A stretch of DNA of 64,000 nucleotides from Chloroflexota bacterium (GTDB taxonomy: Bacteria > Chloroflexota > Limnocylindria > Limnocylindrales > CSP1-4). Positions 20,600-58,614 of this stretch are shown one piece after another. The position numbers and the translations under genes are program-made. The stretch covers positions 2,014-66,013 of the forward strand of contig DAHXON010000008.1 in NCBI GenBank assembly GCA_027364875.1, read 5' to 3'. The stretch's first letter is position 1. The number at the start of each line of letters is the position of its first letter. Below the pieces are notes generated by a model, which saw only the letters and a program-made list of their open reading frames with translations, did not search any database and was not told where the DNA came from.

Positions 20600-21058
20600 A
20601 TGCATCTGTCCGGCGAAACCGAAATCGCTGCGAGTCGCCAGCGGGTATGGGAGGCGATCAGCGATCCATCCACGGCCGTGGCGAACGACGACAGCGGGCA
20701 GGCACGGGTCGAGAAGATCGACGATCGCCACTATCGGGTCACCGTCACGCCGGCCGGCTCGCCGATCCCGATGAACGTGACCCTGGACCTCGAGCTGACC
20801 GAGCTGTCCGAACCGTCGAGAGTGGCCGCGGCGATCTCGGGCGCGGTGATGGGTGGTCCGATCAACGGAACCGGATACATCGAGCTGTCCGAGCTGGCTC
20901 CGAAGCTGACGCGCGCCGAATGGGAGGCCGATGCCACGCTGGGCGGCCTGCTGGGCGGCTTCGAGCCGATGCTCGCCGGCCCGATCCAGGGCGGCGCCGA
21001 GCAGGGTTTCGAGTCGCTCAAGCTCCGCCTCGAGGCCGAGGAAGCGGCCGCGAGCTAA
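20600..21058 (+). CDS. CoxG/SRPBCC family protein
   Basis: MHLSGETEIAASRQRVWEAISDP; TRAEWEADATLGG; RBS GGAGG. Confidence 0.8.
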   Translation: MHLSGETEIAASRQRVWEAISDPSTAVANDDSGQARVEKIDDRHYRVTVTPAGSPIPMNVTLDLELTELSEPSRVAAAISGAVMGGPINGTGYIELSELAPKLTRAEWEADATLGGLLGGFEPMLAGPIQGGAEQGFESLKLRLEAEEAAAS

Positions 21059-21666
21059 CGCTGCCGGGTGTACAGGCCCGTCAGCTGCGTCTGGCCCAGC
21101 AGTACGGCCTTTACCGCCGTGCGAATCTCCGCGGCAGTCGGAGTACCGCTGACAGTCAACGTCCTGGAGAGGGCGTACAGCGTGAACTGGTAGTGGTGCG
21201 TGCCGCCGGGCGGACACGGGCCGCCCCATCCGGTCCGGCCAAAGTCGTTGCGACCCTGCGGCGGTTGGGCCGTCGCGGAGACGCCTTCGGGCAAACCGGT
21301 CTCGCTGCCGGGGATGTTGTAGACGACCCAATGGATGAACCCGCGGGCGTCCGGATCGTCGACGATCAGGGCGAACGCCGCTGTCCCGGCCGGAGCGCCT
21401 TGCCAGCTGAGGGCAGGTGAGACGTCGCGCCCGTCGCACGAGTGTTTGACGGGAATTGCGCCGCCGTCGGCGAAACTCGGACTTGTGAGCACGAATCCGG
21501 CCATGTCTGTCTCCCCGGGCAATGCAGCGGAATCCGAAGCGGCCCTCGCGGGCGGCGCAACCGGCGTACCGGCCGGCACCTGAGCCCCCGAACAGCCGGA
21601 ACACAGCAAAGCAGCCGCCAGTGCTCCGGCGAGCCGCAAGTCGACCAATCGCCGACCGCCGTTCAC
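21055..21666 (-). CDS. YbhB/YbcL (PEBP) family protein, probable lipoprotein
   Basis: LTSPSFADGGAIP, DDPDA, HWV, GPCPP..HHYQFTLYAL; signal peptide ending in Cys. Confidence 0.9.
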   Translation of the reverse strand: MNGGRRLVDLRLAGALAAALLCSGCSGAQVPAGTPVAPPARAASDSAALPGETDMAGFVLTSPSFADGGAIPVKHSCDGRDVSPALSWQGAPAGTAAFALIVDDPDARGFIHWVVYNIPGSETGLPEGVSATAQPPQGRNDFGRTGWGGPCPPGGTHHYQFTLYALSRTLTVSGTPTAAEIRTAVKAVLLGQTQLTGLYTRQR

Positions 21667-21765
21667 CCGCGCAGCATCGGCCCGGACCCGGAACAGGTCA
21701 AGCCGCCTGACGGCCTGACTCGGTTCCGCCCCGGACTCGATTGGCCCCGTCGGGCTCTCGCCCGG

Positions 21766-22842
21766 TCAGCCTCGATAGGTCTTGCGAGCCTGCGTGTCTT
21801 CGGAGACGTGCCGGACCATCTTCGAGAACTGTCGAGCCCTCTCGCGACGCAGCGCCGGAGGCGGCAGCTCGGCCAGCTCCGCCGTGAGCTTCTGGTAGCT
21901 GCGCAGGCGCCGACGGTCGATCCGCCCGTCTTCGATAGCTGCTCTCACCGCGCAACCCGGCTCGCGGTCGTGACGGCAGTCCGCGAACCGGCATTCGGCG
22001 GCGATTTCGGCGATGTCCGTGAACGTCGCCTCCACTCCGTCGTCCGCGTCCCACAGGCCCAGCTCTCGCATGCCCGGGGTGTCGACCATGAGCGCTCCGC
22101 CGGGCAGCCTGAACAGCTCCCGGTGGGTGGTGGTGTGGCGGCCTCGAGAGTCGTCCTCGCGGATCTCGCGCGTGAGCATCAATAGCTGGCCGGCGAGCCG
22201 ATTGAGAAGCGTCGATTTGCCCACGCCCGACGAGCCGACGAGAGCCAGAGTCCGGCCCGGCCGGAACCAGCCTTCGACGGCCTCGATGCCTTCGCCGGTG
22301 ACCGCGCTGAGGGCGACCGCGGCAATGCCGAGCTCGGCGGCAAGACGAGCTGCCGTCTCCTCTCCGTCGGGGACCAGATCCGTCTTGGTCAGGAGCAGAA
22401 CCGGCTCCACGCGGGCGTCGCGGCCCATGGCCACGTACCGTTCGAGCCGCTGGGGGTTGAGGTCGCCGTTGAGCGACGTGGCGATGAACAGCGTGTCCAC
22501 ATTGGCGGCCAGGAGCTGCGAACCGAGCTGGGTGCCCGCCGCACGTCGCCGGAACACCGACTGGCGCGGCACGATCGCGTCGATGCGGACTTCGCCGCTG
22601 TGCTGCGACGCCACGCAGCCGACCCAATCGCCGACGGCCGGCAGCTCTCCCGGGCCCGCCTGATGGCGGAACCTGCCGGTAGGGCTTGCCGGCCGCTCGC
22701 CGCCTTGTGTGATGACCACCCAGGCTCCGCGATGCTGAGCTACGACCCGGCCTGGTTCCAGGCCCACGGCCGCGTGCGGCTCGAAGGCCCGGGACCAGGT
22801 CTCGTTCCAGCCCCAATCGTCGAGGTTCAGAAGAACGTCCAT
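21766..22842 (-). CDS. rsgA: Ribosome small subunit-dependent GTPase A (long/second-paralog type)
   Basis: PAVGDWV, TKTD, GSSGVGKS, RGRHTTT, DTPGMRE, CRFADCRH..EPGC zinc finger. Confidence 0.95.
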   Translation of the reverse strand: MDVLLNLDDWGWNETWSRAFEPHAAVGLEPGRVVAQHRGAWVVITQGGERPASPTGRFRHQAGPGELPAVGDWVGCVASQHSGEVRIDAIVPRQSVFRRRAAGTQLGSQLLAANVDTLFIATSLNGDLNPQRLERYVAMGRDARVEPVLLLTKTDLVPDGEETAARLAAELGIAAVALSAVTGEGIEAVEGWFRPGRTLALVGSSGVGKSTLLNRLAGQLLMLTREIREDDSRGRHTTTHRELFRLPGGALMVDTPGMRELGLWDADDGVEATFTDIAEIAAECRFADCRHDREPGCAVRAAIEDGRIDRRRLRSYQKLTAELAELPPPALRRERARQFSKMVRHVSEDTQARKTYRG

Positions 22843-22844
22843 CG

Positions 22845-23645
22845 TCAACCCACCCTCTTGAGCTTGCCGGTTCGCTTGGCGTACTTCTCGGCCTGGCCGA
22901 AGCCCCAGAGCCCCAGCGGGATGAAGGCGACGGCCGTGATCAGCAGGGGCCAGAGATCCGGAAGGAGATCCGGGATCGACGCCCCGTCGATCAACGCGCG
23001 GCGGACGGCGTCGAGGACGTAGGTCGCCGGCGAGATTCGTGAGATCAGCTGCATCCACTCCGGCAGCACCGTGGTGGGGTAGTAGACCCCGCTCACGAGC
23101 AGCAGGCACGACTGCAGCACGAAAACCATCTGAGAGCCGCGCTCGACTGACATCATCGGCAGTATCGCCGCGAGCATGCCGATTCCGATCAGGCTCAGAG
23201 AACCGACGGCCATGAAGACGGCGGCCGCCGGGAGGTTGGCCTTGCCGAGGTCGAGCGAGAAGAACAGAGCCAGCACGATCAACAGAATGGTCGTGTGGAT
23301 CAGCCCGTAGATGACGGCGTAGAGGGCCGATCCGAGCAGCTGCACGGACCGGCGAACCGGGGCCATCATCGTGTATTCGAGGGTGCCTTCCCAGCGCTCC
23401 CAGGTGATCGTGTCGCCGATCGACTGGAAGACCACCGAGAGGTAGTTCCAGAAGACGGCGCCCACGACCAGGAGCATGAGCAGGCGCCGGTCGCCGATCG
23501 ATTGGCCGATCAGCGAGACCGACAGCGCGCCCGCGACGGCGTAGACGAGGAAGGCGGCTTCCCAGCCGATGTAGCGCTTGGTCAGGTTGAAGTTGCGCTC
23601 GACGAAGGCGTAGCTCGCCCGCGCCTCGCGCGTGAGAGAGGTCAA
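22845..23645 (-). CDS. ABC-2 type exporter permease
   Basis: Six TM helices; WERWEGTLE, SGVYYP..VLPEW..SPATY; TTG start after GAGGAG. Confidence 0.9.
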   Translation of the reverse strand: MTSLTREARASYAFVERNFNLTKRYIGWEAAFLVYAVAGALSVSLIGQSIGDRRLLMLLVVGAVFWNYLSVVFQSIGDTITWERWEGTLEYTMMAPVRRSVQLLGSALYAVIYGLIHTTILLIVLALFFSLDLGKANLPAAAVFMAVGSLSLIGIGMLAAILPMMSVERGSQMVFVLQSCLLLVSGVYYPTTVLPEWMQLISRISPATYVLDAVRRALIDGASIPDLLPDLWPLLITAVAFIPLGLWGFGQAEKYAKRTGKLKRVG

Positions 23646-23700
23646 CTGAGTACTCCTCGTGGAGTGGGGGAGTGGCCCGGCAGGGCCGCGGCCGCGAACG

Positions 23701-23946
23701 TCACCGCCGGGCCGCAAGTTCGCCGACGGAGCCGCACGGATCGCGAACGATCCGAGCGCCTCGAGCGTCGTCGGCCCCGATCGCGACGCCGAGCTTCACG
23801 ACCCCGCGACCGACTCGCTGGCGAATCGACCGCGGGGGCCGGGCCGATACGGATCGCTCGGCCAGGGCCGCTCGCCGCATGAGCCGCAGCTCGATCTCGC
23901 GCTGGCGCTCCTTGTGAATCATCTGGGCAATCTGGTACTGGAACAT
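23701..23946 (-). CDS. Small hypothetical protein (81 aa)
   Basis: RBS AAAGGA before MFQYQIAQM; lies between the ABC ATPase and permease genes. Confidence 0.65.
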   Translation of the reverse strand: MFQYQIAQMIHKERQREIELRLMRRAALAERSVSARPPRSIRQRVGRGVVKLGVAIGADDARGARIVRDPCGSVGELAARR

Positions 23947-24029
23947 TGGGTTGTCCTTTCGGAGTTGATTTCGTTTGTCGTGGGAGCGGACGTAGCGCCC
24001 GTCTCCGGTGTCGATCACGGCCATCGCCA

Positions 24030-24926
24030 CTATTCCTCCTCGGCTTCGCCCTCTTCGATGTCGTCGTCGAGGGAGCGGCCGGTGTACTGCATGAACACGC
24101 TTTCCAGCGTGGGTTGGAGTCCGTAGTCGGCGGCCACAGTGGCCTTGAGCCGGATCGGCGTGTCCTCGGCCGTCAGCTTCCCGCCGGCCAAGATTCCGAT
24201 CCGCCCGCACAGCCGTTCCGCTTCGGCCAGGTCGTGCGTCGTGAGCACGATCGTGGCGTCGTGAGTGGCCTGGAGCTCTTCGATGAACGACTGGACGTCG
24301 AGCTTGGAGCGCGGATCCAGTCCGGTGGTCGGCTCGTCGAGGAGCAGCAGCGTGGGGCTGGTCAACAGGGCTCGCGCTATGGCGACCTTCTGCTGCATGC
24401 CCCGGCTCATCTGCTCCACCGGCCGGCTCATCCGCTTCTCGCCGATGCCCAACCGGCCCATGATCCGGACCGCTTCCTTGCGGGCGGCCCGCGGGTCGAG
24501 GCCGTAAAGGCGGGCGGCGAACGAGAGGTTCTCCGCAGGCGAGAGCTTCTTGAAGAAGGCGGCGTCGACGCTGACCCGATTGATCAGCCGCTTGACCGCC
24601 ATCTCCTCGCGGACGAGGTCGTGGCCGAAGACTTCGACCCGGCCCTCGTCGAGGGTCAGAAGACCGCTGACGAGGCGGATGAACGTGGACTTGCCGCTGC
24701 CGTTGGCTCCGAGGAGCCCGTAGATCTCGCCACGCTCCAACCGGATCGAGACGTCGTCCACCGCCACTACCGGCGGTTTGCGCCGGTCGACCTTGAAGCG
24801 CTTGGTGACGCGCTCGACGAGCAGCGCCGCCGGCGACGGCAGGGGTCGCACTACCGGCTGGTGAGACGGCGCGTCAGCGTTGTTGCTGACCGGCGATTGA
24901 TTGTTGTCCAGGACCGCGATGCTCAT
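24030..24926 (-). CDS. ABC exporter ATP-binding protein (DrrA/NodI-like)
   Basis: GANGSGKS, MSRGMQQK, LLLDEPTTGLDP, TTH; RBS GGAGGTG. Confidence 0.95.
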   Translation of the reverse strand: MSIAVLDNNQSPVSNNADAPSHQPVVRPLPSPAALLVERVTKRFKVDRRKPPVVAVDDVSIRLERGEIYGLLGANGSGKSTFIRLVSGLLTLDEGRVEVFGHDLVREEMAVKRLINRVSVDAAFFKKLSPAENLSFAARLYGLDPRAARKEAVRIMGRLGIGEKRMSRPVEQMSRGMQQKVAIARALLTSPTLLLLDEPTTGLDPRSKLDVQSFIEELQATHDATIVLTTHDLAEAERLCGRIGILAGGKLTAEDTPIRLKATVAADYGLQPTLESVFMQYTGRSLDDDIEEGEAEEE

Positions 24927-25035
24927 CGGCTCACCTCCGTTTCGGAAGGTGGCTCGCGGCGAGGGAATGACCGCGAGCCGAGGTGGGAAGGGAACGGGGC
25001 TCGCGGCCGGCCCGGACACTCGGTCTACGGGCATC

Positions 25036-25068
25036 AAAAAAGCCGGGGCCCAGATCTGGCCCACGGCT
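25036..25068 (-). terminator. Intrinsic terminator within the 5' leader of the ABC-rsgA operon
   Basis: Minus strand AGCCG-T-GGGCC-agatctg-GGCCC-CGGCT followed by a T-run. Confidence 0.85.
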
Positions 25069-25103
25069 CAGAGGTTCGTCCTGGCGGTTCTACCGCCCCG
25101 GAA

Positions 25104-25193
25104 CTACTCGGTGGGCACAGATCTCCCGCACACAGCGGGGCTGCCGTTCGCGAGAACGGTCCCTGCCGTGGCCTTGAGGCGAATGCAGTTCAC
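25104..25193 (-). CDS. Leader peptide MNCIRLKATAGTVLANGSPAVCGRSVPTE (29 aa)
   Basis: RBS GAGGT 6 nt before GTG; lies between the promoter and terminator; its 3' end is complementary to the terminator 5' arm. Confidence 0.75.
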   Translation of the reverse strand: MNCIRLKATAGTVLANGSPAVCGRSVPTE

Positions 25194-25235
25194 CGAGCTA
25201 CCTCACTAGCTGCTACCGGGCGGTAAGCCCGGCGA

Positions 25236-25264
25236 AATGTACGGAAGTACGACGGACGTGTCAA
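25236..25264 (-). promoter_or_regulatory. Sigma70 promoter for the leader-ABC-rsgA operon
   Basis: TTGACA-N17-TACATT on the minus strand. Confidence 0.8.
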
Positions 25265-25305
25265 CCGTTAGTACGTCAGGTGACGTTTCTCGGATCACCC
25301 GGAGT

Positions 25306-26382
25306 TCAGATCGAGGCGGACAGACGGCTCCGGAGCTCCACCAGCCGGCTGCTGTCGCGGACGATCAGCTACGGCTCCACGACGATCTGCTCGGGGGCCG
25401 GCTCCAGGACGCGCCGGGCCTGCCTGCTCCGTTCGATCATCGCGTCGATAGTGTGCACGTCGAGCACGCCGGCATCGGCGAGCGGCTGGTTGACGGTCGT
25501 GAGCGGGGGCCAGAAGTGGGACGACTCGGCGATGTTGTCGACGCCGACCACGGCAATGTCCTCAGGGATCTGCCTGCCGACCGTGTGTGCCGCGTGCATG
25601 AGGCCCAGGGCCATCTGGTCGTTGCTGGCGAAGACGGCGTCGAGGTCGGGGCAGGTCTCGAGAAGCCGGTACAGTGCCTGCTCACCGCAGGCCACGGTCC
25701 AGTCACCCTCGACGATCAGGCAATCCTCGGCTTCGCGGCCGGTGGCCTCGATGGTTTCGCGCCAGCCGGCGAGACGCTGCCGCGCCTCCCACCAGCTCAT
25801 CGGACCGGTGACTATGCCGATATGCCGCGCGCCTCCGTCGAGCAGGTGCTGGGTCGCGAGACGCCCCATCGCGGCGTTGTCGATGCTGACGGTTGGGAAC
25901 TGGCTCCGGCCGTTCATCGGGCCGACCAGCAGCACGGGGCCGTTGCCGTCGATACCGCCGGATCGAGCCCAGCTCCGATTGTCGCCGACCTCGGGCACGG
26001 CCCAGATGATGCCGTCCACCTGCCGGGCGCGCAGCCCCGTCAGGATCGAGTCGGCGTCGACCGTCTCGGGGTCGAGGATCAGCGTGAGGGAGATGCCGTA
26101 GCCCATTTCGGCCGCTGTCCGCTCGATTGCGCCGACTATGCGTGACGGGCCGAAGTACTCGAGTCCGTACGCCACGACCCCGAGCTGATGGCTGCGGCCC
26201 TGGGTCAGCCCCCGCGCGAGCATGTTGGGGGCGTAGCCGGTCTCCCGGATCACCTCCTGGACGCGTTCGAGGGTCTCCGGCGCAACGTCAGGGCGGTTGT
26301 TGATGACGCGCGACACGGTCTGCGTCGAGACGCCGGCGGCCGCCGCGACGTCGCGGATGGTCGGACGCTTCGACTTGGCCAT
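25306..26382 (-). CDS. LacI-family regulator with an in-frame TAG at 25369-25371 near the C-terminus
   Basis: PTIRDVAAAAGVSTQTVSRVIN HTH, NDQMALG, PPLTTV; conserved LIVRDS tail follows the TAG and runs to a TGA at 25306. Confidence 0.88.
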
Positions 26383-26543
26383 GGCGCTGTGCTCCTCCCT
26401 GTGCGATCGGACGCGCTCAGATGATTCTGTCGCATCGACAGGTTCGATGCATTCGTTTTCATGCGGCTGGTCGCACGGTCCGCGACTCGCCCGGGCCGGC
26501 GCCCCGGGGAGCGGGCGCGGTGGCCGGGCCCGTCTTTCGCCTA

Positions 26544-26609
26544 TTGACTCGGCGTGCGGCCGCTGATAGCCTGTTACCGCTCCCGTTACCGTTACCGGGA
26601 ACGATAACA
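26544..26609 (+). promoter_or_regulatory. Sigma70 promoter and LacI-type operators of the arabinose operon
   Basis: TTGACT-N17-TAGCCT (26544-26572), followed by three GTTACCG units including the pseudo-palindrome GTTACCGGGAAC. Confidence 0.65.
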
Positions 26610-27121
26610 TCGGTTGGACCGTCTCGCAATGAGTAGTCCGGGGAACGGAGAAGCCCCAGGCAAAGGCTCTTATCTGCGAAGGCGGGGAAGCGGCGAACGC
26701 AACAGCAGCGGAGGCGGCTTCGAGGCGACTGCCGTGGGAGGCGGCGATCCTCGATGCGGCGGAGGACGGATAGCCGAGATCGGGTGAGGCCACCGGCCAG
26801 CCGGGAAGACAGCCAGGTGGCTGGCGGCTGATAGACCGGTCTTCGTCATACGGCACGTCCATGGCGGGTCGGAGTGCGAGTCCAGCCTTGTGGAGACCCT
26901 GGATTCGGGCCCCAGCCCTGACCGCGACCGCTTGCGAGCGTACGGCCCTGCCTGTCGCGACCGAGGAGGTGTGGATGACCCTAGGCGCCAGTTGACCCGC
27001 GATGGAGGCGAGATACCGCACGAGTCAGTGGAGAGACGGGCAGCGAGGCAGCACGGGTCTGCCTCAGCCAGATGAGTGCAGGACACCGCCACAACTGCCC
27101 CAGACACGGAGAGACCACCAG

Positions 27122-58528: not shown

Positions 58529-58614
58529 GGGCGAGTGGCGGAATGGCAGACGCGCCAGCCTTAGGAGCTGGTGCCGGTCACGGCATGCGGGTTCGAGTCC
58601 CGCCTCGCCCACCA
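58529..58614 (+). tRNA. tRNA-Leu (anticodon TAG)
   Basis: GGGCGAG/CTCGCCC acceptor stem, anticodon arm CCAGC-CTTAGGA-GCTGG, long variable arm, GTTCGA T-loop, encoded CCA; -10 TACACT at 58513. Confidence 0.96.

Follow-up and report, generated by a model that had tools for sequence, protein, structure and literature searches.

What decides whether RNA polymerase enters the exporter operon encoded on the minus strand of a 64,000-nucleotide stretch of Chloroflexota DNA (contig DAHXON010000008.1, positions 2,014 to 66,013, hereafter the window) is the question raised by the leader that precedes that operon at positions 25264 to 25036. An earlier note, made from the letters alone, had described this leader as a ribosome-stalling attenuator that senses macrolides through a short peptide and controls an ATP-binding cassette (ABC) exporter together with rsgA. 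The host belongs to the class Candidatus (Ca.) Limnocylindria, whose members are widespread in soil and freshwater and for which we know of no cultured representative. Our comparison of the leader with its counterparts in related genomes points to a ribosome-position-dependent (leader-peptide) transcription attenuator, and we conclude that this is probably what it is, with a DrrAB-like ABC-2 exporter operon as its output, an operon which in the window's family also carries the cell's only rsgA gene. The parts of the leader, listed in the order in which they would be transcribed, are as follows.

25236 to 25264, minus strand: sigma-70-type promoter, with TTGACA at 25264-25259, a 17-nucleotide spacer and TACATT at 25241-25236 (read from the sequence and a promoter scan).
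25215 to 25233, minus strand: 5' hairpin just past the predicted transcription start (minimum free energy (MFE) fold and genus alignment).
25200 to 25204, minus strand: Shine-Dalgarno (SD) sequence GAGGT of the upstream open reading frame (uORF) (sequence).
25104 to 25193, minus strand: uORF of the putative leader peptide, with a GTG start at 25193, 29 codons and a TAG stop at 25106-25104 (sequence and comparison).
25176 to 25198, minus strand: region 1, the candidate anti-antiterminator strand, formed by the start codon and first codons (window fold and genus alignment).
25133 to 25167, minus strand: central hairpin within the uORF (MFE fold and compensatory changes).
25111 to 25124, minus strand: region 2, the predicted 5' strand of the antiterminator, corresponding to uORF codons 24-28 (complementarity and comparison).
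25083 to 25099, minus strand: hairpin between the uORF stop and the terminator (MFE fold and genus alignment).
25036 to 25068, minus strand: intrinsic terminator, a GC-rich stem-loop at 25068-25041 followed by five T at 25040-25036 (sequence, fold and scan).

The promoter, the SD, the 29-codon uORF, the terminator and the complementarity between region 2 (25124-25111) and region 3 (25064-25052), which extends over 13 base pairs with one bulged base, all lie where the earlier note had placed them. Its leader peptide, given as MNCIRLK, has to be amended in one respect, as the start codon is GTG and not ATG, six bases beyond GAGGT. Region 3 comprises the 5' arm and loop of the terminator, whose 3' arm follows at 25051-25041 ahead of the T-tract. 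A scan of 21000-27000 returned this promoter as its sole promoter-like site (1 found, where shuffles give 0.3 +/- 0.5) and also detected the terminator. Among 28 loci of the genus, the TTGACA column shows little or no variation. Upstream of the promoter, a LacI-family gene on the minus strand ends near 25369. The transcript would begin a few bases past the -10 box. The MFE fold of 25240-25020 (-99.9 kcal/mol, z = -2.37) revealed two pairings that were absent from the earlier note: the upstream strand 25198-25191 pairs with 25113-25106, with further bases of region 1 pairing with region 2, and in the terminated fold ACCUC at 25075-25071 is the partner of the uORF's SD.

In the mechanism that we propose, the 29-codon uORF would be translated from the GTG behind GAGGT, and region 2 would have two possible partners, region 1 in the anti-antiterminator or region 3 in the antiterminator. 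With no ribosome on the transcript, the 1:2 helix would form first and the terminator after it, and transcription would end near 25036. A ribosome that reaches the stop codon would cover region 2, and the terminator would likewise form. Only a ribosome halted within about the first third to half of the uORF would both open the 1:2 helix and free region 2 for region 3, and the resulting 2:3 pairing would allow RNA polymerase to read into the operon, so that early stalling would amount to read-through.

The leader is not a chance arrangement, since the same leader is kept across orthologue loci, genus and family. A DNA search identified it in 24 of 24 genomes of the same genus and in none of 16 genomes of a sister family with genomes of ~1.1 Mb. 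The covariance model R1, which was built on 27 genus sequences, located it in 96 of the 108 genomes of the window's family (23 of the 26 sampled genera) and in 42 of 50 genomes of a second family that belongs to another order of the same class (39 of 47 when the unpublished genomes G224, G230 and G248 are excluded). In addition, at each of the 80 best ABC-orthologue loci (80 of 80) the leader precedes the gene in the same orientation. The same model found no leader in two further families of the class (0 of 49 and 0 of 1 genomes), a single weak match (78 nucleotides, 31 bits) among 42 genomes of the small-genome sister family, and only weak hits, at 26-31 bits in 4 of 136 genomes, in a phylum-wide draw outside the class. 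The weak hits in the sister family and outside the class are probably terminator-like or chance matches. Several genomes carry two copies of the leader locus (G008, G013, G005, G126, G120, G124 and others, with loci that include L026, L027, L028 and L089), and some of these second copies may be assembly duplicates. Three loci (L114, L134 and L171) lie on contigs labelled Zixiibacteriota, Binatia and Methylomirabilota, respectively, and carry the leader with an ABC gene 71-78% identical to that of the window; these contigs are probably mis-binned Limnocylindria. No published account of the leader was found in the literature on Limnocylindria, supplementary files being outside the coverage of that search. 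On that search the element is undescribed, and it belongs to a class of regulator that is already known.

The alternative helices on which the mechanism depends are conserved in these relatives. In the genus alignment A1, pairing reaches 92.7% over the whole terminated fold. The components of this fold include the terminator, paired in 99.3% of cells (95.6% across both families, mostly invariant), the helix of the 5' hairpin (95.6% paired, with a compensatory change at one pair in six sequences), the SD/anti-SD helix (94.8% paired, without covariation) and the hairpin at 25099-25083 (97.5% paired), which turns into the apical part of the antiterminator structure. Within the central hairpin, 19 sequences have UA and 8 have CG at pair 105-112, and at pair 104-113 CG occurs 21 times and UA five times. 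The 1:2 helix is 86.4% paired with two compensatory pairs, and the 12 pairs of the antiterminator are 98.8% paired, two of them having changed on both sides. A second alignment of 63 sequences from both families was fitted to the terminated structure and hence is unbiased towards the antiterminator. Across it the antiterminator is 90.1% paired, compared with 22-51% for partners displaced by 1-3 columns, and two-sided changes occur at 4 of the 12 pairs in 17 cells, a number that none of 500 shuffles attained. At the clearest of these covarying positions, 33 sequences have A-U and 10 have U-A.

Pairing energies were also compared between leaders. In a partner-swap test of 98 leaders, region 2 paired with its own terminator arm at a mean of -19.2 kcal/mol versus -16.5 kcal/mol for foreign arms, and ten lineages with non-consensus sequences ranked in the best 2%. 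The region 2/region 3 helix is comparable in energy to the terminator hairpins (-15 to -23 kcal/mol), which is what a switch would require. When 103 distinct leaders were folded to just past the uORF stop, approximately 64% of the upstream pairing probability of region 2 fell at -12 to +23 from the first base of the start codon, a partner site that lies under an initiating or early-elongating ribosome. These comparisons indicate that the leader possesses a terminator, a predicted antiterminator that shares bases with both the terminator and the uORF, and a competing region 1, the set of parts by which an attenuator is recognized, and that the putative antiterminator is maintained by compensatory changes.

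Open frames mean little in DNA of high G+C content, and for that reason frame preservation was chosen as the test of the uORF. Across 112 loci (80 ABC-orthologue loci, 31 genus representatives and the window), a uORF was present at the same place in 111, representing 103 distinct nucleotide sequences, and it was present at 14 of 14 second-family loci. The distinct sequences start with ATG (79), GTG (23) or TTG (1), mostly behind GGAGG-like SDs, end with TAG (64), TGA (34) or TAA (5), and are 19-34 codons in length except for one of 46. Within the genus, 25 of 28 loci have a frame of 27-33 codons whose start lies 10-14 nucleotides beyond the initial G of GAGGT and whose end immediately follows a conserved CCCACC, one of the 28 being unscored by the anchor used. 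Fifteen different spacings separate the start codon from the invariant GCCC of region 2, and 13 of them are congruent modulo 3. The remaining two spacings belong to one clade of eight sequences, in which the same conserved nucleotides are read with a one-base shift of frame and the stop codon lies 8 rather than 13 nucleotides past GCCC. The frame is thus either kept or accompanied by a moved stop, and therefore selection appears to act on translation through region 2 and on a nearby stop, not on the C-terminal peptide.

The peptide itself fits that description, as its N-terminal and middle parts vary freely, its N-terminal half being poorly conserved, and its C-terminal motif, G-R-S-x-P-x-S-S/R, is on this comparison a shadow of RNA conservation. 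A role for the C-terminal G-R-S-x-P-x-S-S as an arrest sequence was ruled out, since one clade reads those nucleotides in another frame. With its own SD and start codon, and maintained as an open reading frame throughout the loci compared, the uORF is predicted to be translated. The parts, their geometry, the preserved frame and the compensatory changes in the antiterminator uphold the attenuator logic of the earlier note, and the direction of the switch is a feature that we infer.

The same observations bear on two explanations in which translation of the uORF would not set the switch. If the leader were a riboswitch-like riboregulator that binds a ligand or protein, with the open reading frame incidental and the outcome set without ribosomes, one would expect the highly structured RNA, the several covarying helices and the very strong nucleotide conservation of the 3' half that are seen here, and a clade that reads region 2 in another frame would pose no difficulty. 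Such a regulator would, however, leave unexplained why SD, start, reading-frame length and stop position are kept in all but one of the loci, why 13 of 15 length classes share one frame and the other two have a compensating shift of the stop, and why the stop alternates among its three possible codons. Furthermore, searches of Rfam 15 at gathering and permissive thresholds returned no family for the leader, the best match being terminator-like at 23 bits versus a gathering threshold of 45, and we consider a riboregulator very unlikely. (The sole Rfam match at gathering level anywhere in the window is a tRNA at 58529-58611 on the plus strand, which has a long variable arm.) Alternatively, the small open reading frame could encode a functional peptide, for example one that is exported or modified by the ABC system and the GNAT acetyltransferases found in many of these operons, with the hairpin serving as a partial terminator that sets stoichiometry. 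Loci for peptide export indeed often have a small peptide gene, then a terminator and then an ABC exporter. Against this, the peptide is poorly conserved save where the RNA is constrained, the out-of-frame clade would make a different C-terminal sequence from the conserved nucleotides, and a simple terminator would not need the alternative helices that covary here; hence, we regard this explanation as extremely improbable.

Several points weigh against the attenuator that we propose. When equilibrium folding was combined with ribosome masking, the terminator, once fully present, dominated at most ribosome positions, the exception in the window being codons 1-2, and in a transcript cut before the 3' arm the antiterminator formed with or without a ribosome. 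The outcome therefore hinges on the order of folding, and the OFF state of an untranslated leader rests on an assumed kinetic trap by the 1:2 helix. The equilibrium masking models were set aside as evidence on the direction of the switch, as they left the OFF state without translation unsettled. The reading frame is broken at 2 of the 28 genus loci, by a +1 frameshift in L004 and by loss of the stop in L028, which is a second copy. There is no conserved stalling determinant among the leader peptides. The case is, moreover, a comparative and computational one for an organism that is uncultured.

The last of these points concerns transcripts. RNA evidence for the region consists of assembled Logan contigs, which show no ends, strand or level and in which gaps within the operon are uninformative. 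Two RNA libraries, from the same study as the DNA, have short contigs that match the region. One contig, of 165 nucleotides, covers 25058-25221 with no mismatch, is essentially the leader and provides a weak hint that the leader is transcribed, and other contigs lie in the ABC, rsgA and PEBP genes. On the opposite side is a contig from a related strain (25208-25435, 8 mismatches) that runs from the end of the LacI-family gene through the promoter into the first bases of the leader, so that upstream read-through or DNA carry-over is possible.

What would hold a ribosome in the first part of the uORF is a separate matter. The motif R/K-X-R/K (+X+) is a macrolide arrest motif, and the earlier note had proposed that a ribosome bound by a macrolide or ketolide arrests at R5-L6-K7 of the window peptide and so induces the operon. 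The motif at residues 5-7 is shared only by the window's nearest relatives, the three closest of which have R-F-R or R-F-K there, and a ribosome at that place would, from the geometry, cover region 1 and leave region 2 free. In addition, counted ahead of the last nine residues, +X+ is mildly over-represented in the peptides as a whole, occurring in 23 of 103, at residues 3 to 25, versus 15.1 +/- 3.1 in residue shuffles, an excess that ignores relatedness. However, by the same count only 3 of 23 distinct genus peptides have the motif, the other 20 mostly beginning V-R-N-L-x-K, and in other genera it occurs at residues 10-14. The leader RNA is conserved over two families irrespective of the motif, and the downstream genes encode a DrrAB-like exporter, GNATs and RsgA rather than Erm, Msr or ABC-F proteins. 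An alignment of leaders from orthologous operons, which the earlier note had named as a check of its proposal, thus sustained the uORF and the helix covariation but not the conservation of +X+. A macrolide sensor is in our judgment improbable for the element at large, although a macrolide-specific response may exist in the window's own lineage.

An attenuator of the trp, his or leu type, which senses an amino acid or its charged tRNA, would have the same three-helix architecture, and the N-terminal part of the peptides is richest in Ala, Arg, Leu, Thr and Pro. The leaders, however, contain no run or cluster of any single codon, there is no conserved residue outside the RNA-constrained parts, and the operon consists of exporter, acetyltransferase and RsgA genes rather than biosynthetic ones. 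Like the earlier note, we see very little likelihood of a biosynthetic attenuator. Because the peptide is variable, without runs or a conserved arrest motif, while the geometry is conserved, the signal read by the attenuator is most likely slowed or arrested translation generally, as caused by ribosome-targeting compounds or other translation stress, and not one drug or amino acid. That assignment is a guess, and it agrees with what has been reported for the bmrB-bmrCD and toiL systems considered below.

Comparison with known systems places the leader among regulators that couple the position of a ribosome to RNA structure. Trp-type attenuators have mutually exclusive 1:2, 2:3 and 3:4 helices, a leader open reading frame over regions 1 and 2 and a U-tract terminator. 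The leader in the window has those helices, that placement of the reading frame and such a terminator, but differs in having no regulatory codon runs, a region 1 that includes the start codon and SD-proximal bases, and an extra hairpin between regions 2 and 3. The whiB7/wblC leaders of Actinobacteria, which combine a uORF and a terminator in sensing translation stress, had been the frame of reference of the earlier note; as the host here is a member of the Chloroflexota, the downstream gene is not WhiB-like and there is no sequence or Rfam relationship, they offer an analogy only. The erm-type leaders ErmDL and ErmCL are drug-dependent arrest peptides. They resemble the present leader in that early arrest on a short peptide would remodel the downstream RNA, with R-L-K in the window at a similar early position, and differ from it in that the motif is unconserved here, the output would be antitermination of an exporter operon and not an rRNA methylase, and the present leader is known from sequence alone. 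BmrCD, the output of the next system, is a heterodimer of fused half-transporters, unlike the separate ATPase and ABC-2 permease encoded here. The yjhQ gene, part of the output of the Escherichia coli toiL system that is compared after it, encodes a GNAT, as do genes in the relatives of the cluster described here.

In Bacillus subtilis, the multidrug ABC transporter genes bmrCD are subject to ribosome-mediated transcriptional attenuation through bmrB, and induction by protein synthesis inhibitors needs translation of the leader (PMC4191407). The earlier note knew of no precedent for its pairing of sensor and output, a claim of novelty that is not supported, as an ABC multidrug exporter under a ribosome-mediated attenuator had already been published. 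In both systems, ABC exporter genes are preceded by a translated leader reading frame (a prediction in our case), by stem-loops that can form alternatively and by an intrinsic terminator, whereas the terminator reportedly lies inside the bmrB coding region (PMC4191407) and is 36-68 nucleotides past the uORF stop here. There is no sequence relationship between them, the phyla differ, and the operon studied here also has GNATs and/or rsgA.

In Escherichia coli, several classes of antibiotics stall ribosomes at various positions of toiL, a multipurpose sensory uORF upstream of topAI-yjhQP, with the result that the RNA is remodelled and the downstream genes are de-repressed (PMC12121999). The toiL uORF acts by occlusion of the ribosome-binding site and by Rho-dependent termination inside the downstream reading frame, as distinct from the intrinsic terminator with a U-tract and the explicit antiterminator predicted here. 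A third comparison is provided by hflXr (lmo0762) of Listeria, a ribosome-associated GTPase gene reported to be under an antibiotic-responsive leader attenuator (PMC6310831). In the present operon the corresponding GTPase, RsgA, is a factor of 30S assembly with a single genome copy and not an HflX paralogue, and its linkage to the leader occurs in only one of the two families.

Downstream of the terminator, the window contains a further structured segment and the genes that the leader would regulate.

24932 to 25008, minus strand: second structured segment, between the terminator and the start of the ABC gene (fold and comparison).
24030 to 24926, minus strand: ABC transporter ATP-binding protein, DrrA-like (profile matches).
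23701 to 24024, minus strand: small basic open reading frame between the ATPase and permease genes, 107 codons, ATG at 24024 with AGGAGG upstream (sequence).
22845 to 23717, minus strand: ABC-2 type permease, DrrB-like, with a true start probably downstream of 23717 (profile matches).
21766 to 22845, minus strand: RsgA, the 30S-subunit biogenesis GTPase, whose start overlaps the permease stop by one base (profile match).

The segment at 25008-24932 folds at -50.6 kcal/mol (z = -2.46) and comprises a long GC-rich hairpin of 25008-24998 with 24979-24969, a further, third occurrence of the arm sequence at 24960-24951, and a hairpin at 24951-24932 which in the predicted fold buries the SD of the ABC gene. 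In the window's genus the arm sequence of the long hairpin recurs in this way a third time, often with a T-rich stretch behind it, and a comparable long hairpin (GAGCCGCG.../...CGCGGCTC) is found in other genera. This second conserved structure, seen also at loci L059-L090, could be a second terminator or could exert translational control.

The exporter genes have the Pfam domains ABC_tran and ABC2_membrane, and their best NCBIfam models, drrA (222.6 bits, cut-off 312) and drrB (57.6 bits, cut-off 223), both score below cut-off. The gap between ATPase and permease genes holds an open reading frame of at least 40 codons in 38 of 45 loci, and by eye most of these share a basic C-terminal motif ending near '...ARSR'. 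The RsgA of the window is without a second family match in the assembly, which is 90% complete, and a PEBP-family gene lies downstream of it. When downstream architecture was surveyed by tblastn within ~4.5 kb, the 32 loci of the window's family were found to have an ABC-permease pair in 31 cases; 26 have a co-directional RsgA gene and 25 a GNAT acetyltransferase of two domains, whose gene stands before or after RsgA. All 14 loci of the second family have the ABC-permease pair followed by one to four GNAT paralogues, and none of the 14 has RsgA. Therefore, the conserved core is the leader with the exporter, usually accompanied by GNATs, and rsgA is a family-specific passenger, so that the exporter-rsgA output named in the earlier note stands for the exporter only. 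In most relatives, the window's genus being excepted, the exporter is followed by one to four tandem GNAT paralogues of ~340 residues with two domains (L061, L075, L085, L172-L185 and others); their only matches were generic GNAT domains and two uncharacterised solved structures.

A broader proposal is that the leader, as a general sensor of translation stress, heads a "ribosome-defence" regulon in Ca. Limnocylindria composed of the exporter, one to four GNATs and, in one family, the cell's only RsgA, which would not simply be a constitutive factor of 30S assembly but would be induced upon ribosome stalling. By analogy with HflXr, induced RsgA may then provide homeostatic feedback on 30S maturation or protection against 30S-targeting compounds. 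The locus L067 (genome G064) has the leader directly before rsgA and a GNAT gene with no ABC genes between, at ~450 nucleotides from leader to rsgA, a layout that fits the proposal. We nevertheless consider a regulon of this kind unlikely.

The transcription attenuator that we favor reveals no new regulatory principle. It does provide Ca. Limnocylindria with a well-supported cis-regulatory element, for which 103 distinct leaders suffice to define the switch by covariation alone, and it marks the exporter/GNAT/RsgA cluster as probably responsive to translation stress. The cluster is thereby a starting point for asking how members of the class withstand compounds that target ribosomes, and whether a GTPase of 30S assembly can be inducible.

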